Assembly: GCA_963742415.1 (NCBI GenBank)
Contig: CAVULX010000004.1
Span: 1 to 64,000, forward strand
DNA length: 64,000 bases
Direction of reading: 5' to 3'
From: an uncultured Parachlamydiaceae bacterium
GTDB lineage: Bacteria; Chlamydiota; Chlamydiia; Chlamydiales; Parachlamydiaceae
In this document: one piece after another, positions 5,847-13,233 of the stretch
Layout: each line of letters starts with the position of its first letter
How positions within the stretch are numbered: position 1 is the first letter of the stretch
Made by a program: the position numbers and the translations under genes
Notes under the pieces: model-generated
Databases searched by the model: none
What the model was told of the DNA's origin: nothing
The model's input: only the letters and a program-made list of their open reading frames with translations

Positions 5847-6026
5847 ATGGACATCTTCAACGACGAGATGCTCAGGGAGTGGATGGCGCAGGATCATCCG
5901 GCTGTGCGGGAGCTCGCCAAGATCCGCGACGTCGAGTGCATCGACCTGCCGACGGGCCACTGGCCGCAGTTCACCCGGCCCGGTGAACTCGGCCGGGCGA
6001 TCCTGGCGAGCGTGGGGCCCGCCTGA
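5847..6026 (+). pseudogene. C-terminal remnant of an alpha/beta hydrolase
   Basis: 59-codon frame ending ...IDLPTGHWPQFTRPGELGRAILASVGPA* (catalytic-His region); N-terminal part absent. Confidence 0.55.
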
Positions 6027-6153
6027 CAGGGACGACACGCCTGTAATTTAGGGCGGGGAACCCGGTCCGTTCGGAACCCGTTCTGCTCCGGCCGGGGACT
6101 TGGAGAGGTGGAAACCGTCGATTGATCTGGCCATCGGATGACCCGGAACGATA

Positions 6154-6753
6154 ATGGGCGGCGTGGATAACAGCCACTACGGCCTGGTCATCGCGGCTGC
6201 CCAGGCCGCGGGACCGTGTCCTCCCGGTGCGGAGGCGGCATGGGGCCGCCGGGTGCATGGACTGACCGTGGACCTGCACCTGATCGCTCAGCAGGCGAGG
6301 CAGGATATCGAGCGGCTGGAGTCGGCGCGGACCTTCATCGCGTTCCTGGAGAAGGTCGAGATCGAGGAATCGAGTCGTCGCGGGCTGCTCACGTTGCGCT
6401 TGCCGTCAGGCGAGAGCGAGCCGATCCGCACCGAGCAGAAGGACACCGACCGCGGGCAGGCGCTGATCGAGCGAGCCCGCTCCCTGGAAGGACGCTGGGT
6501 GCTCGTCTACCGGTACAACGAGCGGAAGACAGGGCAGCGGAACCAGTCGGTCCGGATGCTGGCGCACCTGATGGATCTCGGCGTTGACGGGGCCGTGCCG
6601 AACAACACGGCGAAGAAGATGGTGCTGCAAGAGGCGGGTGGCGACGTGGCGCGCGCACAGCAGGCGTGGACGGCCGCAGGGCTGCCGGAGACCGGCCCGG
6701 TCAGCGTCGGTCAACTGGAGCAGGCGCGCGAGGCAATGCGGGAAGCCAGGTAG
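6154..6753 (+). CDS. Hypothetical protein (199 aa), beta-rich central region
   Basis: Intact ORF with high-GC codon usage; GATAAT at 6150-6155 may be a -10 box for a start at GTG 6163. Confidence 0.75.
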   Translation: MGGVDNSHYGLVIAAAQAAGPCPPGAEAAWGRRVHGLTVDLHLIAQQARQDIERLESARTFIAFLEKVEIEESSRRGLLTLRLPSGESEPIRTEQKDTDRGQALIERARSLEGRWVLVYRYNERKTGQRNQSVRMLAHLMDLGVDGAVPNNTAKKMVLQEAGGDVARAQQAWTAAGLPETGPVSVGQLEQAREAMREAR

Positions 6754-6798
6754 CAGCAAAAGGTGCCCTGCCTTCCTCCGTTCCGGTCGGCAGAAGGC

Positions 6799-6976
6799 TG
6801 ATAACAGCAAGAAGCGCAGGAAGTGACATCAGCTCGGCCGCGACCGTGACCGCGATCTTCTGGTCCGGGCCGAACCAACAAGGTCCGAATCGAGCCGACT
6901 CGGTTCGACCCGGACCACATATCGCCGGGAGGCGAGGCACGGGCTTGGGATGCAGGAGCGCTTCTTGCTGTTATCA
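6799..6976. repeat. Long nested inverted repeat (hairpin) between the hypothetical gene and the recombinase-like gene
   Basis: Perfect 19-bp IR TGATAACAGCAAGAAGCGC (6799-6817 / 6958-6976); inner 16-bp IR with 1 mismatch (6861-6876 / 6902-6917); partial complementarity in between. Confidence 0.9.
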
Positions 6977-6978
6977 CT

Positions 6979-7869
6979 ATGGATGAGTATTCTCCGGGTA
7001 TGGCAGATCTGGGGGAGCGCAGGTCAGCGCGCGGCGCTATCGATGATTTCATCCGTCATCTGGCCGACGGCCAGTTCGCTATCATCACCCGGCGGATCCG
7101 CAGGCACTTCCTCAGCGAGTACCTGCATCATGCGCAGCAGGCCGTCGGCAACGTCGATATCACGGTCGGCGAGCTGATGAACCCCGCGCGCGCCGACGCC
7201 TGGCTCTCCGATGCGGCCGACGGGAAGACCCGTACCCGCAATACGCTCCGCGGTCCTGATGCCGCCGCCTACACCAACTCCATGCGCGTGCGCATCGACT
7301 CCTACAACGCCTTCGCCGAATTCCTCTGCCTGCCCAACCGCCTTGACAGCCAGCCGCCCGCCTCCGGCTACTACCTAACCCCCGCGGATACCGAGCATCT
7401 CCTCCACGACCTGACGGTCCGCAGGCCTGTTCACGCCAACGCCTCAACTTCACTGCGCACCGCCGCCCTTGCCGCGCTCGTGGCCGACACCGGTCGGTCA
7501 GTCCCCGAACTCGCCCGCCTCGACATCAGCGCCCTGCAGCTGGACGGCGAGGCACGCGTCGAACTCGCCGACGGATCTTGTCCGCTCGGCGGCCCAACCG
7601 TGCAGATCCTCACCCGGTGGCTCAGGGCCCGAGCGGTGATCATCGCCGAACTCGAGGGCAGCGACCCCGGCTACCTGTGGATCCCGACTAAGCCCGGGCG
7701 GCCCCGAGGCGGTCGCGAGCCCGTTAAGCCCGGCCTCAGCCGCGCGGCCGTCCGCACCCTGCATGCCGCCCACCGCACCCTCGTCACCCAGTTGCTCGGC
7801 ACTCCGCTTCGCCCCGGCGCCCTCCGCGCGGCAGGCCCGTCACGTTCTCGGGCCGGCCAGGAGTCGTGA
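6979..7869 (+). CDS. Tyrosine recombinase (XerC/XerD-like) homolog with degenerate catalytic motifs
   Basis: Core-binding-like N-terminus (IDDFIRHL...SMRVRIDSYNAFAEFL...YLTPADTEHLL), box I-like RTAALAALVADTGRSVPELARLD, box II-like LRPGALR; no His/Trp-Tyr tail before the stop. Confidence 0.7.
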   Translation: MDEYSPGMADLGERRSARGAIDDFIRHLADGQFAIITRRIRRHFLSEYLHHAQQAVGNVDITVGELMNPARADAWLSDAADGKTRTRNTLRGPDAAAYTNSMRVRIDSYNAFAEFLCLPNRLDSQPPASGYYLTPADTEHLLHDLTVRRPVHANASTSLRTAALAALVADTGRSVPELARLDISALQLDGEARVELADGSCPLGGPTVQILTRWLRARAVIIAELEGSDPGYLWIPTKPGRPRGGREPVKPGLSRAAVRTLHAAHRTLVTQLLGTPLRPGALRAAGPSRSRAGQES

Positions 7870-8157
7870 GAGCCCCACTCGTCCTGGGCGATCCGCCGGG
7901 TGCTGACCAACGACGGAACGCGCTGACGTATCCGCTCGATCGCTCGTTGCCGCGTGGCCCGTCGGAGGCGCGGAACTACAGCGGGACGTGTTCCGGTGTG
8001 TTGGATCCAAACGGCACGCAGACTCAATCGGCACGCTGAGCTGGCCGGACGGTTGGGGGATTTAGCCGAGACGCCGCTGGCGGGCCGCCAGGCACACCGA
8101 TCTCACCATCGCGACGCGCGTTGCGCGAATCGTTGTTGGCGGGCGCTGGGCACGATA

Positions 8158-8750
8158 GCACCGCGCGCTGCGCGGCCACTGCTCGAGATCGGCTGTCGGA
8201 CGCGCGTGGGAAGGCCCGCATCGCCGCCGAGCTGATACCGCCGGACATCGCCGAGCAGGTACCGCTGGACCTGCTCGGCCTCATTACCGGCCTGCCCGCC
8301 GAGACGGCGCAGATTCCTTGGGATGGCCCTCAAGTCCGGATTATCGAGCATCAAGCGCATGCCCCGGGCCATGCGGCGCTGTTGATTGAGGAACGGGGGG
8401 TTCTCGTCGCCGGCGACATGCTTTCTGATGTCTTGATTCCGATGCTCGACTTGAACGACACCGCTGACCCGATCGAGGACTACCTCGCCGCGCTTCGGCT
8501 GCTCGAGGGCGTGGCGGGCGACGTCGATGTCCTCGTCCCGGGCCACGGGTCCATCGGCGGAGCTGATCAGGTACACGCACGGATCCACCAGGATCGGGCG
8601 TACGTGCACGCCCTGCGTGACGCCCATGTTCCCAGCGACCCGCGGGTCGGCCCATCGGCCAAGGACGGCTGGGACTGGGTGGCCGACGTGCACGCACGGC
8701 AACTCCAGCGCCTCGCCCGAAGAAGCGAGCGCGACGGGACGCCCGGCTAG
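8158..8750 (+). pseudogene. MBL-fold metallo-hydrolase, C-terminal part only
   Basis: HAPGHAALL...LVAGDMLSD...VLVPGHG present; HxHxDH motif missing; 5' end approximate. Confidence 0.7.
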
Positions 8751-8762
8751 CGGTCCGCTGGT

Positions 8763-8879
8763 GAGCGTAACCAGCTCGAGACGTTCCTCCTCTCCCGGGC
8801 TTTGGAGCACGACGCGCCGGGGGTGCTGCTGCAGCTGGCCTGTGACTGGCTCCGTAACGAACGGATCATCCGCGCATGA
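8763..8879 (+). mobile_element. Tn3-family transposase N-terminal (DUF4158-like) fragment
   Basis: ERNQLETFLLSRALEHDAPGVLLQLACDWLRNERIIR* resembles actinobacterial Tn3 TnpA. Confidence 0.6.
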
Positions 8880-8914
8880 CTCGACTGGCGTGGTTGCGTC
8901 GCATCTCATTCAAT

Positions 8915-9040
8915 CTTGTGGTTCCGGTCAGCCCGCGGTCGAGGTAGATCCGCTCGGCGGCGACGCCGAGCTCGGCCAGGCGCTGGCGTTGGGCGGTGAG
9001 GTCCTGCTCGTCGGCGGGCGGGCGTAGCCAATGATCGTCT
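8915..9040 (-). mobile_element. Serine resolvase N-terminal fragment
   Basis: IIGYAR/ADEQDLTAQRQRLAELGVAAERIYLDRGLTGTTR, frameshifted at the catalytic-Ser position and truncated. Confidence 0.7.
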
Positions 9041-9109
9041 GCGGTCCGGGCAGCTAACAGGGTGAGCAGACCGTCCCTATCGGGTCGGTGAATGCCTGCC
9101 GTCCGCCGC

Positions 9110-10260
9110 TCAACTGCGCAGTTCCGCGTTGAGCCGTGCGGCCTGTCGCGTGAGGTGGTCGCGTTCGGGGAGGTTGGGCGCTGATCGGGCGGCTTCGGCG
9201 TAGAGCCGTGCCGCGGTGACCGGGTCACCGTCACGCTCGTGCAGGTACGCCGCGACGGCGGCGTGGCGGGGCAGGGCGGGGTCGAGCTCCGCCAGGGCGG
9301 CCAGGCCGGCCCGCGGGCCGTCGGCCTCGCCGACCGCGACGGCCCGGTTGAGGCGGGCCACCGGGCTGTCGGTGAGGCGCACCAGTTCGTCGTACCACTC
9401 GACGATCTGCACCCAGTCGGTCTCCTCGACCGTCCGGGCGTCGGCGTGGAGCGCGGCGATGGCGGCCTGGGCCTGGAACTCGCCCAGGCGGTCGCGGGCG
9501 AGGGCTGTCTGGAGCACGTCGACGCCCTCGGCGATCAGGCGGGTGTTCCACAGGCTGCGGTCCTGCTCGGCAAGGGGCACGAGCCTGCCGTCGGGGCCGG
9601 TCCGTGCCGGGCGCCGGGCGTGGTGGAGCAGCATGAGCGCGAGCAGGCCCGCGACCTCCTCATGGTTGGTCTTGGCCGCCAGCTGGCGAGTGAGCCGGAT
9701 CGCCTCGCCGGCGAGGTCGACGTCGCCGGAGTAGCCCTCGTTGAAGACCAGGTAGAGCACGCGCAGCACCGTGGCGACGTCACCGGGCTGGTTGAACCGG
9801 ACGCCCGAGACGGTCCGCTTGGCCCGGCTGATCCGCTGGGCCATGGTCGCCTCCGGCACGAGGTAGGCCTGCGCGATCTGACGCGTGGTCAGGCCGCCGA
9901 CCGCGCGCAGCGTGAGCGCGACGGCCGAGGCCGGTGTCAGGGACGGGTGCGCGCACAGGAAGTACAGCTGGAGCGTGTCGTCCACCACCTCGCCCGGGCC
10001 GTGCCGGGCATGGGCTCGCCCTCGACGCGTACCTCGCGGTGCCGTCGGGAGGTATCGGCGCGGGCGGCGTCGAGGAACTTGCGCCAGGCCACGGTGACCA
10101 GCCAGCCCTTGGGGTCCCGCGGCGGGTCGTCCGGCCACACGCGCACGGCCTCGACCAGGGCGTCCTGCACGGCATCCTCGGCCGCCGCGAAGTCGGCTCC
10201 GCGACGGACGAGGATGCCGATCACGGTGGGGGTGAGGGTCCGCAGCAGGGCCTCGTCCAC
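9110..10260 (-). CDS. ECF RNA polymerase sigma factor with C-terminal extension (YciI-associated type), frameshift near 10000
   Basis: DFAAAEDAVQDAL...WPDDPPRDPKGWLVTVAWRK, then DDTLQLYFLCAHPSL...LRAVGGLTTRQIA...TMAQRISRAK...YLVFNEGY...EQDRSLW. Confidence 0.85.
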
Positions 10261-10266
10261 CGTGCG

Positions 10267-10677
10267 TCACTCCGTGATGGTCGGGGGCGCGGCCAGGAAC
10301 GGGCGCACCTCGAGCCACTCGTGGATCGGCTTCCCACCCGCACCCGGAGCCGCGGACAGCTCGCCGGCCAGCTCGAGCGCCCGCTCGTAGGTCTCGACGT
10401 CGATCACCATCCAGCCGGCGATCAGGTCCTTGGTCTCCGCGAACGGGCCGTCGGTGACCGGCGGCCGCCCCTCGCCGTCGTAGCGGACGAACGTGCCCTC
10501 CGGGGAGAGCGCCTGACCGTCGACGAACTCGCCGGTGCCCTCGAGCCGAGCGGCGAAGTCGTGCATGTACTGGATGTGGGCCGAAACCTCCTCCGGCGTC
10601 CACTGGTCCATCGGCACGTCGTTGACCGGTGCCGGCGCGCCCCGGTAGTGCTTGAGCAGCAGGTACTTGGCCATCAT
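10267..10677 (-). CDS. YciI/DGPF-family protein
   Basis: VTDGPFAETKDLIAGW...EVRP motif; immediately upstream of the ECF sigma gene. Confidence 0.9.
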   Translation of the reverse strand: MMAKYLLLKHYRGAPAPVNDVPMDQWTPEEVSAHIQYMHDFAARLEGTGEFVDGQALSPEGTFVRYDGEGRPPVTDGPFAETKDLIAGWMVIDVETYERALELAGELSAAPGAGGKPIHEWLEVRPFLAAPPTITE

Positions 10678-11007
10678 GTTCTCCTTGGTGCGGTACGGCC
10701 CATTGTGGCCGTGTTCACTCCGGGGACGGAGCCGCGCGCGGGTTCTCGACATCCCACCGCGACATTTCCTGGCGGACTCCGCTCAGCCTCGCCCACGTCG
10801 GGGTCACGGACGACCATGCCGTCGTAGAGCGAACGCACCTCCGCCTCCCAGTCGACCCGTAGCTCAGGCATCATCTCGTAGGTGCCGCTCGCCTCGAGAT
10901 ACTCGTCCGGGATGCCATCGACGACGTCCAGCTCGGCCCGACCGCAGATGAGCAAGATCTTGCGCAGGGCCAGCAACGGCAGGCCGGGCCAGGATCGCTT
11001 ATCCTCT

Positions 11008-11035
11008 ACTTTACATAATGTACATTATCGGCGCA
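11008..11035 (-). other. dif: dif-like XerC/XerD recombination site
   Basis: Minus strand TGCGCCGATAA-TGTACA-TTATGTAAAGT: 11-6-11 architecture matching the actinobacterial dif pattern (CGCCGATAA...TTATGTxAAGT). Confidence 0.8.
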
Positions 11036-11137
11036 TAAGCCAGACGAGTTGCTGTCCCGTCTCACAGAAGATTCCGCCCGTGACAGCGCGTCCGCGCAGC
11101 TCTGAACGCTTCTTGCGCTGGCCGGCCGGGACTGTCA

Positions 11138-11171
11138 CCCTCATTCCACTAAACTATTAGTGGAATGAGGG
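11138..11171. promoter_or_regulatory. Probable GntR/YtrA autoregulatory operator
   Basis: Perfect 15-bp IR CCCTCATTCCACTAA-acta-TTAGTGGAATGAGGG, AT-rich, just upstream of the gntR start. Confidence 0.75.
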
Positions 11172-11176
11172 ATTCG

Positions 11177-11566
11177 ATGATCGAGTTCCAGCTCGAGACG
11201 TCGGGCGTCGCCACCTACCTGCAGCTCGTGCAGCAAGTTCATCAGGCCCTGCGGATGGGCATGCTGGAGCCGGGTGACCGGCTACCGACCGCGCAGCAGG
11301 TAGTCGCCCAGCTGGCCATCAACCCGAACACCGTGCACAAGGCCTACCGGGAGCTGGAGCGCGAGGGACTGGTCCGCGCCCGCCCCGGTCTCGGTACGTT
11401 CGTTACCCGCCTGCCTTCCGGGACCGACCCGGCCGCGCAGGCCCGGTTCCTCGCTGAGCTGGCCGGCGGCCTCCGTTCGGCACGCGCGGCGGGCCTGGGT
11501 CCCGATGACATCGAGGCGATCTACCGCACCGCCTTCCGCGACTGCTTCGCCGAGGGAGTCGCATGA
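11177..11566 (+). CDS. GntR-family (YtrA subfamily) transcriptional regulator
   Basis: YLQLVQQV...LEPGDRLPT...INPNTVHKAYRELEREGLV...GLGTFV; short C-terminus; ATGA overlap with ABC gene. Confidence 0.92.
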   Translation: MIEFQLETSGVATYLQLVQQVHQALRMGMLEPGDRLPTAQQVVAQLAINPNTVHKAYRELEREGLVRARPGLGTFVTRLPSGTDPAAQARFLAELAGGLRSARAAGLGPDDIEAIYRTAFRDCFAEGVA

Positions 11567-12138
11567 ACGCCTTCATCGCGGCCAGCGGACTGGGCAAGCA
11601 GTACCGGCGGACCTGGGCGCTGCGCGACTGCACGCTGGCCATCCCCGAAGGTCACGTGGTCGGGCTCGTCGGCCCCAACGGCGCGGGCAAGACCACCCTG
11701 CTGCGCCTGGCCACCGGGATGCTCACGCCGACCCGCGGCACGATTACCGTCCTCGGCCAGCGCCCCGCGGCCGGCCCGGGCGGCGACACCTTCACGCTCT
11801 ACGGCAACAGCATCCCCGGCCAGCCCGGCGCCTGGCTCCTGTCCAGCGGCCCCGTCAACGCCGCCGGGCAGGCAACCAGCACCACCCCGGCCGCCTGCGC
11901 ATCGGTAGGAAGCACCGGCCCGGGCACGGGCGCGAATCAGGGCGCCAGCCCACAGGGGTCGACGACGGGCCCCGTCGCCTTCCTTGGCTGCCTGGCCAGC
12001 CACGGCATCCGGGAGGCCATCACCTACCAGCCCGCCAGCCGCTACTGGCGCTTCCAGGCCACCGAGACCGCGATCTACCTCGCCCTGGCGCTGGCCCTGG
12101 CCGGGTACTGCTTCCGGCGGCTCAGCCGCCTTTCCTGA
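11563..12138 (+). pseudogene. In-frame fusion of an ABC ATPase N-terminus to an ABC permease C-terminus
   Basis: Walker A GPNGAGKTT but no signature/Walker B; ends with permease-type YQPASRYWRFQATETAIYLALALAL. Confidence 0.75.
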
Positions 12139-12584
12139 ATGAAAAGGCCCGCCAACGAGAAACGGCCTCGCAGCCCATCTTCATGAGACAAGTAGCCCAG
12201 TCCGGCGCCAACCTCCCAGGTTCCTTGAGACTTCGAGTCAGCTCGTCTCAAAGAACCTGTCGTTTCCCAGCTCCTTCACCCGATCATTCGCCACGTCAAC
12301 TGAGAACGAACATCCTCGCCTTGCTGGCGGCACCGGCGCATGGGCGCAGCCCATACTTGCTTAAATCGGGATAGTTCCGATCGGCGCACCGGGAGACCTC
12401 GATGGTGGAGACCTCTCTGGTCTTCTCCCCGGTCACCCCTCCCCCGTTATCACATTGGCGGCAGCCATCGGGCTCGTACTGATCCAGGTTGGCGGGATTT
12501 CTCTTCACCTCAGCCGGGGCGAGGCAAAGATGATCGGGCTGAACGTCGTCCTACTCCTCCTGGCCGGCGCCGGAGCCTGCTGAT

Positions 12585-12905
12585 ATGAGAACGACAACGC
12601 TGTTGCTAGGTATCCGCATTACTGCGCTTGCAAGCAGGTCTAGGTTGTCGTATCCGCTTATCGACAGCTGGGATGCCGGGACTCCGTGAGCTTCAAGGAA
12701 TGTGGGGACGGCCTGGGCGCGGGCGAGGGAGAGCTGAAAGTCTCCGCTGGATCCGGCGGAGGCAACGGTGTAGCCAACACAGTGGTAATGGGGCCTGCAG
12801 GCAGGCTCCTGATTGCGCTCGCTGCGGCACTAGCCCACGATTTGAGGTCAGCTTCGACCGACTTACTGAGCCGGGACTGATCAGGCTGGAACGGCACTAT
12901 TGGGC
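12585..12905 (-). pseudogene. Degraded OmpA-like (peptidoglycan-binding) domain
   Basis: PFQPDQSRLS... then, in another frame, VGYT...QLSLARAQAVPTFLEAHGVPASQLSISGY; ends approximate. Confidence 0.55.
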
Positions 12906-13104
12906 CATCGTCACAGCCGGGACCGTCCTTGCCGCGGACGGGTACGCTGACGGCCCCGCTCGCCTCGCCGCCCTAGGCTCCTGAGAACACGACGCTGCCC
13001 GCGGAGTACGCCGGCCACCTCGCCTGGTGTAGGGGAAACGTCCGTTACCCCGACACCGAGCTCGACGGCCTCAGCCACCGTCGGAAGGAGACAACTCGCG
13101 GGGC

Positions 13105-13125
13105 CTCGCAACTAAAGCCTGGTTC
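13105..13125. other. Junction between actinobacterial-type and chlamydial sequence
   Basis: Abrupt switch from very GC-rich to AT-rich DNA and in gene content. Confidence 0.9.
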
Positions 13126-13233
13126 TGGTCTAGATCATTTTTTGTCACTGAGCAGGAACGGACGATATTTCCGGTATTCTGAGGAATTTGCGGCTGATAA
13201 AGTATAATTTTCATTAGATGCGTAAGTTGATAA

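Follow-up and report, generated by a model that had tools for sequence, protein, structure and literature searches.

What is the role of a perfect inverted repeat that stands between two intact genes near the end of a metagenomic contig? We address this question for a 64,000-nt stretch of DNA (hereafter the window; positions 1 to 64,000 of contig CAVULX010000004.1, assembly GCA_963742415.1, filed as an uncultured Parachlamydiaceae bacterium), in which a short module comprises an upstream open reading frame (ORF1), a spacer holding the repeat, and a downstream open reading frame (ORF2). A first-pass annotation, made from the letters of the window, had viewed the spacer as one long hairpin of RNA or single-stranded DNA (ssDNA), or as an invertible or attC-like segment, acting with the two proteins. 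Comparing the module with its homologues, we found that the "hairpin" arms are the innermost opposed pair of a 19-bp asymmetric, one-directional site, CTGATAACAGCAAGAAGCG. Our analysis points to the module as the centre of a terminus-directed polar-site system and a candidate replication fork trap, a reading to which we give a probability of about 0.5 and in which site binding by ORF2 and fork arrest are inferred.

Dispersed polar sites flip at a dif-linked module

A scan of species-representative genomes returned 72 ORF2 loci, found in metagenome-assembled genomes (MAGs) of Streptosporangiaceae and Trebonia and in Streptomyces. Searched as a 15-mer with at most one mismatch, the site occurs 2 times in genome G073, 66 times in G074, 126 times in G075, 13 times in G076 and 16 times in G077, while the reversed pattern, scanned as a control, has 0 matches in these five genomes. 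The copies are strictly oriented around the module. On contig G075:C9 all 16 exact sites to its left lie on the '+' strand and all 35 to its right on the '-' strand, and on G074:C2 (at most one mismatch) the left side has 16/16 '+' and the right side 33/33 '-' among the matches listed. The same polarity, with the flip at the module, is found on G126:C8 (8 '+' on the left, 2 '-' on the right), G196:C194, G182:C333 and G232:C8, and the extra sites within the 72 loci (at most one mismatch) follow the rule in 20 of 20 cases. Site density peaks near the module and declines over 1-2.5 Mb. A sample of 26 sites from G075 has CTGATAACAGCAAGAAGCG alone in common, with unrelated flanks, and every one of them lies outside coding-like stretches, often directly 3' of a co-oriented gene.

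Same-orientation doublets and triplets 17-60 bp apart are frequent among the dispersed sites, for example at C1 162354/162381 and at G075:C9 1207745/1207802 and 2013022/2013050/2013076. They recall a second '+' copy near the ORF1 stop and a decayed copy at window 6742-6766; five loci (L010, L034, L036, L041, and L042) have an intact second '+' site 17-64 nt upstream of the left arm.

To place the flip relative to the replication terminus, we searched for dif-like sites with a pattern based on the dif of Frankia alni, as quoted in an excerpt of PMC3025954. The window holds one such site, which 0/100 shuffles match. Eleven of 15 genomes have a dif-like site on the contig that carries ORF2, at 0.2-32 kb from the module, and it is the sole one in each genome except G076. 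The distances are 3.0 kb in G074, 1.6 in G075, 17 in G126, 3.6 in G243, 0.2 in G232, 1.5 in G229, 0.25 in G234, 7.3 in G104, 8.9 in G272, and 32 in G255. In G076, two complete modules with ORF1, pair, and ORF2 (G076:C8, about 8.5-13 kb; G076:C71, about 157-165 kb) each have their own dif-like site, the distances being 2.8 and 5.3 kb; this MAG either contains two replicons with termini or is a bin mixing two strains. As for the four exceptions, G073 and G077 have no dif match, G185 has its match on a contig other than that of ORF2, and the assembly of G149 is too fragmented to decide. Dif-like sites lie within 19 of the 72 loci and in none of the 23 plasmid-type loci (22 from Streptomyces, one from Trebonia).

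Other markers of replication were read on the same contigs. The four 16S genes on module contigs (one each in G073 and G074, two in G077) all read toward the module, and on G075:C1 all 44 sites are on the strand of the 16S gene. Coding strands on G075:C9 are 53% '+' to the left of the module and 62% '-' to its right. In five of five genomes dnaA and the module are on different contigs. Thus, opposed clusters of asymmetric sites flank the terminus and dif as in the Tus-Ter and RTP-Ter traps, and the flip falls at the ORF2 module, not, as in a KOPS/FtsK-type system (KOPS, FtsK-orienting polar sequences), at dif itself and without an accessory gene.

The site and ORF2 also occur together. Our co-occurrence sample comprised 201 genomes of the family around G073, including the unpublished G202, which is positive for ORF2, the exact 15-mer, and ORF1; since most of these are incomplete MAGs and they are related to one another, the counts are descriptive. 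ORF2 was found in 21 genomes, the 15-mer in 24, and ORF1 in 16. ORF2 and exact sites coincide in 19 genomes, with ORF2 only in 2, sites only in 5, and neither in 175.

The right arm overlaps the predicted promoter of ORF2. Comparison of the loci places the conserved starts at GTG 6163 for ORF1 and ATG 7000 for ORF2, so that the right arm ends 23 nt before the recombinase-like gene instead of the 2 nt first proposed. In 42 of 59 loci the right arm contains a TTGCTG with a TANNNT 16-18 nt downstream and the ATG a further 6-8 nt on, a layout in which, judged from sequence, the arm supplies the -35 element of a leaderless ORF2 promoter; in Tus-Ter and RTP-Ter, too, the gene of the terminator protein has a site in its promoter. 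The 17 loci without this pattern are 16 Streptomyces loci and L006. Both ORF1 and ORF2 look leaderless.

The two proteins and the spacer

ORF2 has the fold of a tyrosine recombinase without its chemistry. The motifs DTGRSVPEL and ...LRPGALR reported at first pass are present, and there is no catalytic-Tyr region. In its AlphaFold2 model (predicted local distance difference test score, pLDDT, 68; residues 10-225 confident) the two-domain arrangement of core-binding and catalytic folds is present, and the top Foldseek matches are all tyrosine recombinases (XerA, Cre, IntI, lambda Int, and XerH; E values from 2e-5 to 1e-2); an ORF2 profile run against the PDB reached XerA at E = 0.05. The R-K-H-R-H/W pentad with its Tyr nucleophile is missing. 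Across 33 close and 14 distant members (relatives at 20-41% identity) no Tyr is invariant, Arg I is unconserved, no beta-hairpin Lys is found, and the proteins stop about 30 aa after the "AHR" helix. Because the whole family ends before the Tyr helix, the loss of catalysis is a family trait, and the caveat that the window's copy might simply be truncated falls away.

Sequence databases scarcely recognize this family. ORF2 has no Pfam family at E ≤ 1 and no match to PF00589 at the gathering score, only weak integrase-type matches in NCBIfam and PHROGs, no PADLOC family, and no Pfam or NCBIfam match to Tus (PF05472) or RTP (PF02334). Some distant relatives (such as P0344, P0373, P0375, and P0383) match PF00589 at about positions 6-136 of 172 only. 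A profile search of 1.84 billion representatives found 188 clusters, and at least 1,328 of 7,999 scored candidates are ORF2 homologues, the best 120 of which are 276-375 aa long, 77-95% identical, and mostly named from Streptosporangiaceae MAGs. The median ratio of nonsynonymous to synonymous substitution rates (dN/dS) is 0.38 at a dS of about 0.65-0.70, indicating purifying selection. ORF2 is probably the protein that binds the 19-bp site.

For ORF1, the suggestion that the partner might have an oligonucleotide/oligosaccharide-binding (OB) fold was borne out. A confident AlphaFold2 model (pLDDT 89) has N-terminal helices, an OB fold at residues ~55-140, and three C-terminal helices; the barrel is five-stranded with b1-b3-alpha-b4-b5 topology. 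Its structural neighbours are generic OB proteins, among them SSB, RPA, PriB, and RecO (VIA Z up to 10 over residues 49-147), and include OB proteins that do not bind nucleic acids. ORF1 has no Pfam, NCBIfam, PHROG, or PADLOC family, and a protein atlas search returned only its own family; the phage collection contained no homologue of ORF1 or ORF2. ORF1 too is under purifying selection (median dN/dS 0.22, dS ~0.65-0.70).

The two genes are partners across homologues, as the first reading of the window would have it. By tblastn ORF1 was detected in 38 of 72 loci, usually 230-320 nt upstream of ORF2, and it is present on 30/30 ORF2 plasmids among the matches listed. In the 201-genome sample, 15 of the 16 ORF1-positive genomes carry ORF2, ORF1 stands alone in 1, and ORF2 lacks ORF1 in 6. 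ORF1 is a frequent but dispensable partner. In L038, L070, and G272:C14:232700-234190 it lies tail-to-tail downstream of ORF2, the pairing being kept in two arrangements.

The spacer was the part of the module on which the hairpin view depended. Its perfect 19-nt inverted repeat (6799-6817/6958-6976) and inner 16-nt repeat (6861-6876/6902-6917, 94% complementary) are both real, and in single-stranded form 6790-6985 folds at -100.1 kcal/mol (z = -6.7; 0/200 shuffles as stable). Of 34 sequences, only about one-third are predicted to form a continuous long hairpin. The core GATAACAGCAAGA(AG) is common to both arms in 33/33 loci with ORF1 at most 800 nt upstream of ORF2, and the 34-sequence alignment has 13 consecutive invariant positions per arm. 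Both arms are present in 53 of 73 sequences, spaced 152-176 nt apart; outside the core, the arms of these 73 sequences show no complementarity towards the centre and only a weak excess of it away from the centre. The arm-to-centre linkers pair in no consistent way. RNAalifold retains the arms and two short central stems only, with compensatory change in 2 of 21 pairs: the covariation by which the hairpin was to be checked gives way to arms that are invariant.

An Rfam search of the spacer gave no relevant match. Once the arms are taken away, the stretch between them still folds more stably than its shuffles (median z = -2.6; z < -2 in 23 of 34), most of this residual stability being contributed by a central palindrome; this and the fold of the window's spacer are what favours a structured noncoding RNA or ssDNA element. 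Across the 34 aligned loci the centre has invariant G and C columns at an exact 10-nt period. The arm sequence, however, is found alone hundreds of times elsewhere as a genome-wide polar DNA site, something beyond the view of one window that tells equally against an attC-like site or an invertible switch. These readings are largely refuted, and we give the hairpin acting with two proteins almost no credence. The central 55-bp palindrome is kept from Streptosporangiaceae to Streptomyces plasmids and is absent at the dispersed sites.

Module layout, plasmid copies, and provenance

Both reading frames were open as first annotated (6154-6753, 199 aa, and 6979-7869, 296 aa), and the features of the module are collected in Table 1. 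Nucleotide homology between the loci and the window has a sharp left border at 6148-6150 and extends to 7823-7876, with flanks otherwise unrelated. ORF clustering over the 72 loci and Pfam searches of 41 flanking ORFs revealed no conserved neighbours besides ORF1 and ORF2.

Table 1. Features of the module and its surroundings in the window
Feature	Position	Strand	Remarks
ORF1 -10-like element GATAAT	6150..6155	+	7-nt spacer, then GTG 6163; predicted leaderless layout
ORF1, 196 aa, OB fold	6163..6753	+	Alignment, AlphaFold2 model, fold matches
Degenerate extra '+' site copy	6742..6766	+	72% to left-arm region
Left arm, polar site CTGATAACAGCAAGAAGCG	6798..6816	+	Last of the '+' series
Central 55-bp imperfect palindrome	6862..6916	no strand	GGNCC-type pentamers
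Right arm, same polar site CTGATAACAGCAAGAAGCG	6959..6977	-	First of the '-' series; holds -35-like TTGCTG 6965-6970
Predicted ORF2 -10 element TATTCT	6988..6993	+	17 nt after TTGCTG, 6 nt before ATG 7000
ORF2, 289 aa (296 aa if from ATG 6979)	7000..7869	+	Tyrosine-recombinase fold without Tyr helix
Dif-like site CGCCGATAATGTACATTATGTAAAGT	11008..11033	-	1 mismatch to Frankia alni dif-derived pattern

Plasmids carry a compact form of the module. ORF2 is found on 34 Streptomyces plasmids, one copy each, and ORF1 on 45 plasmids, of which 44 are from Streptomyces. Among the ORF2 plasmids listed as matches, ORF1 lies upstream on the same strand in 28 of 30, at a gap of 0.3 to ~47 kb, with accessory genes and insertion sequence (IS) elements separating the two genes. 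The site, searched as a 14-mer, occurs exactly twice on each of five plasmids examined, as the opposed pair before ORF2. In L089 and L090 (plasmids NZ_CP109474.1 and NZ_CP108204.1) and in L086, ORF1 has as neighbours an N-6 DNA methylase and a primase-polymerase/P4-primase replication block, and on plasmids of this type ORF2 with its site pair is up to 47 kb from ORF1 on the same strand. Some Streptomyces chromosomes (L066-L068 and L072-L074) have ORF2 as C-terminal fragments only, that of L074 lying 19-25 kb into a 9.3-Mb chromosome record; such fragments are probably decayed remnants of plasmid-derived copies. Two plasmid-centred ideas, an origin with iterons (for which pWTY27 RepA-IR2 offers a precedent) and a TraB/clt function (suggested by an 8-mer, clt being shown only to hold 8-bp repeats), were dropped once the chromosomal polarity was seen.

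The module is foreign to the genome in which it was noticed. GC content is ~70% up to ~13,100 and ~40% from there on (13100-64000), none of 72 further genomes searched from the family of the window carries ORF2, and contigs from 4 soil-metagenome runs include near-perfect matches to window 5867-13130, one of which runs beyond 13,130 into sequence differing from the window. Thus, the module belongs to a Streptosporangiaceae-like chromosome terminus to which a low-GC genome was probably joined by mistake. The "region of broken genes" described at first pass corresponds to the first ~13.1 kb and has to be redescribed as a foreign, compositionally chimeric contig end (70% versus 40% GC), and the mis-join at ~13.1 kb would probably also account for the broken genes. 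Within the window's own genome (G000) the 196-nt spacer and both proteins are single-copy; a miniature inverted-repeat transposable element or other repeat of that genome was ruled out, the 15-mer being found there at the two arms only. Contigs of the soil metatranscriptome library X15 match window 6149-6337, 6553-6719, and 7048-7238, in ORF1 and ORF2, at roughly 90-94% identity, one match beginning exactly at the module boundary 6149. They are a hint at expression of relatives only, with DNA carry-over possible.

A candidate fork trap weighed against other readings

Read as a fork trap, the system would work as follows. The sites are intergenic and on each replichore are oriented with fork movement, and the two series face each other at the inverted pair, immediately upstream of ORF2 and a few kilobases from dif. 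ORF2, with its Xer/Int-type fold minus the catalytic C-terminus, would bind every site as an oriented clamp. Since the sites cannot block normal forks, the co-directional orientation would be the permissive one, and by analogy with known traps a bound site would let origin-to-terminus forks pass and halt those moving in the opposite direction. The opposed pair would then form a ~140-bp trap with the outer sites as back-ups, and on Streptomyces plasmids the bare pair with ORF2 would be a portable two-site trap. Because the promoter-proximal site overlaps ORF2's own -35, bound ORF2 would repress itself, like Tus at terB and RTP at IRI; excerpts of PMC10331603 and PMC6549158 describe tus and rtp as both autoregulated via a ter site in their own promoters, and tus as plasmid-borne and patchy. 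More tentatively, and with rather more doubt than belief, we suggest that a dead Xer-derived recombinase serves as terminator of a third, independently evolved fork trap, in which more than 100 oriented site copies arose via possibly replication-coupled copying, the OB partner grips the unwound strand at the blocking face, and the gene plus pair forms a portable plasmid or terminus cassette.

Several observations weigh against the fork trap. The number of sites, up to 126 per genome, is far above the 9-10 Ter sites of Escherichia coli or Bacillus subtilis, and identical 19-mers cannot arise by point mutation, so a copying process is implied. Parts of the module are left idle by the model, namely ORF1, which was not detected with this query in the site-rich G074 and G077, and the conserved central array with its 10-bp phasing. 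Sampled GC skew in G075:C9 keeps its sign (+0.016 on the left, +0.006 on the right), in G075 and in the window the innermost pair does not enclose dif, and one carrier plasmid is recorded as linear, where an opposed pair would block one arm. Finally, ORF2 is carried by only 21 of the 201 sampled genomes, the genomes studied are MAGs, and the window comes from a contig end that is chimeric.

The same sites could instead act on a translocase or loop extruder, with ORF2 stalling or unloading SMC-ScpAB, or guiding or stopping FtsK, as these travel from origin to terminus. The Xer-like fold of ORF2, the resemblance of the site start CTGATAA to the CCGATAA arm of the dif-like site, the density of sites around dif, and the precedent of B. 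subtilis XerD, which acts non-catalytically at XDS sites according to an excerpt of PMC11840125, all speak for this. However, the polarity converges on the module rather than on dif, which is not KOPS-like, 19 bp is long for a translocase-guiding motif, and plasmids with a bare opposed pair and a dif-like site in 0/23 loci fit a replication role better; we regard an action on translocases as unlikely. ORF2 might also be a terminus-domain organizer or plain transcription factor, similar to MatP or a repressor, with site orientation reflecting selection against head-on collisions of forks with a tightly bound asymmetric protein. Intergenic sites, several of them just before or after genes, and a promoter overlap that amounts to regulatory use would suit such a role. 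Yet selection against the head-on orientation already presupposes a polar barrier, and the opposed pair 140 bp apart on every replicon, including plasmids, is left unexplained, making an organizer or regulator improbable.

The copying problem raised above is the strength of a further alternative, in which the 19-mers were left behind by a mobile process coupled to replication (strand-specific insertion of the IS200/IS605 ssDNA type), ORF2 and ORF1 are domesticated or helper parts, and polarity is a by-product. More than 100 identical copies with unrelated flanks require a copying mechanism, same-orientation doublets 17-60 bp apart are common, and ORF1 has an OB fold. On the other hand, ORF2 has no nucleophile, G073 and the plasmids have only the pair, and the flip coincides with the module in every checkable contig, whereas a by-product bias would flip at ori/ter regardless of the gene. 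We consider a mobile origin of the polarity a poor bet.

The fork-trap reading draws on the likeness to described systems, each of which differs from the module in definite ways. In B. subtilis RTP-Ter, an inverted polar pair (IRI/IRII) lies directly upstream of rtp with one site in its promoter, according to an excerpt of PMC10331603, and more polar sites lie on either side of the terminus; RTP is a winged-helix dimer on A+B half-sites and has 9 sites, compared with a tyrosine-recombinase fold, a single 19-bp site, up to 126 copies, an OB-fold partner, a phased central array, and a conjectural fork arrest here. E. coli Tus-Ter, as presented in an excerpt of PMC6549158, has non-palindromic sites in two opposed clusters toward dif; it has a ter site in the tus promoter, a patchy and plasmid-borne distribution, and two-site traps on plasmids (R1, R6K). 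In contrast, its fold is unrelated (ORF2 has no Tus domain in Pfam, and its model resembles XerA, Cre, and IntI), its site sequence differs, and its sites are far fewer.

B. subtilis XerD-XDS likewise has an Xer-type protein at dif-like terminus sequences outside dimer resolution (in SMC unloading, in the same excerpt of PMC11840125), but XerD retains its Tyr as an active recombinase and XDS sites are few. The inactivated tyrosine-recombinase domain of TnsF, from Tn6022-type Tn7-like transposons, is a sequence-specific DNA binder and bender (PMC10293859, in part), but with added zinc-finger regions, TnsABC as partners, comM as single target, and no dispersed polar sites. The KOPS-FtsK-dif system has strand-polar motifs co-oriented with replication and converging in the terminus; KOPS, however, are 8-mers shared by every genome of a clade and have dif itself as their point of convergence, unlike a 19-mer tied to ORF2 (both in 19, sites only in 5 of 201 genomes) that converges on a module 0.2-32 kb from dif.

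Tus-Ter and RTP-Ter are the only two unrelated fork-trap systems described, each in narrow clades, as far as excerpts of PMC6549158 and PMC10331603 go, and we found no description of this site or of such an actinomycete system in the literature outside subscription journals, which lay beyond the search. If the fork-trap reading is true, the module would be a third such system, in Actinomycetota and derived from a dead Xer-type recombinase, and fork traps would have evolved repeatedly and out of terminus-resident machinery. It would provide a new test case, with very many sites, for the purpose of fork traps and a compact polar DNA barrier usable in high-GC hosts, and more than 1,300 proteins now labelled "hypothetical", along with a conserved plasmid module, would gain a role.

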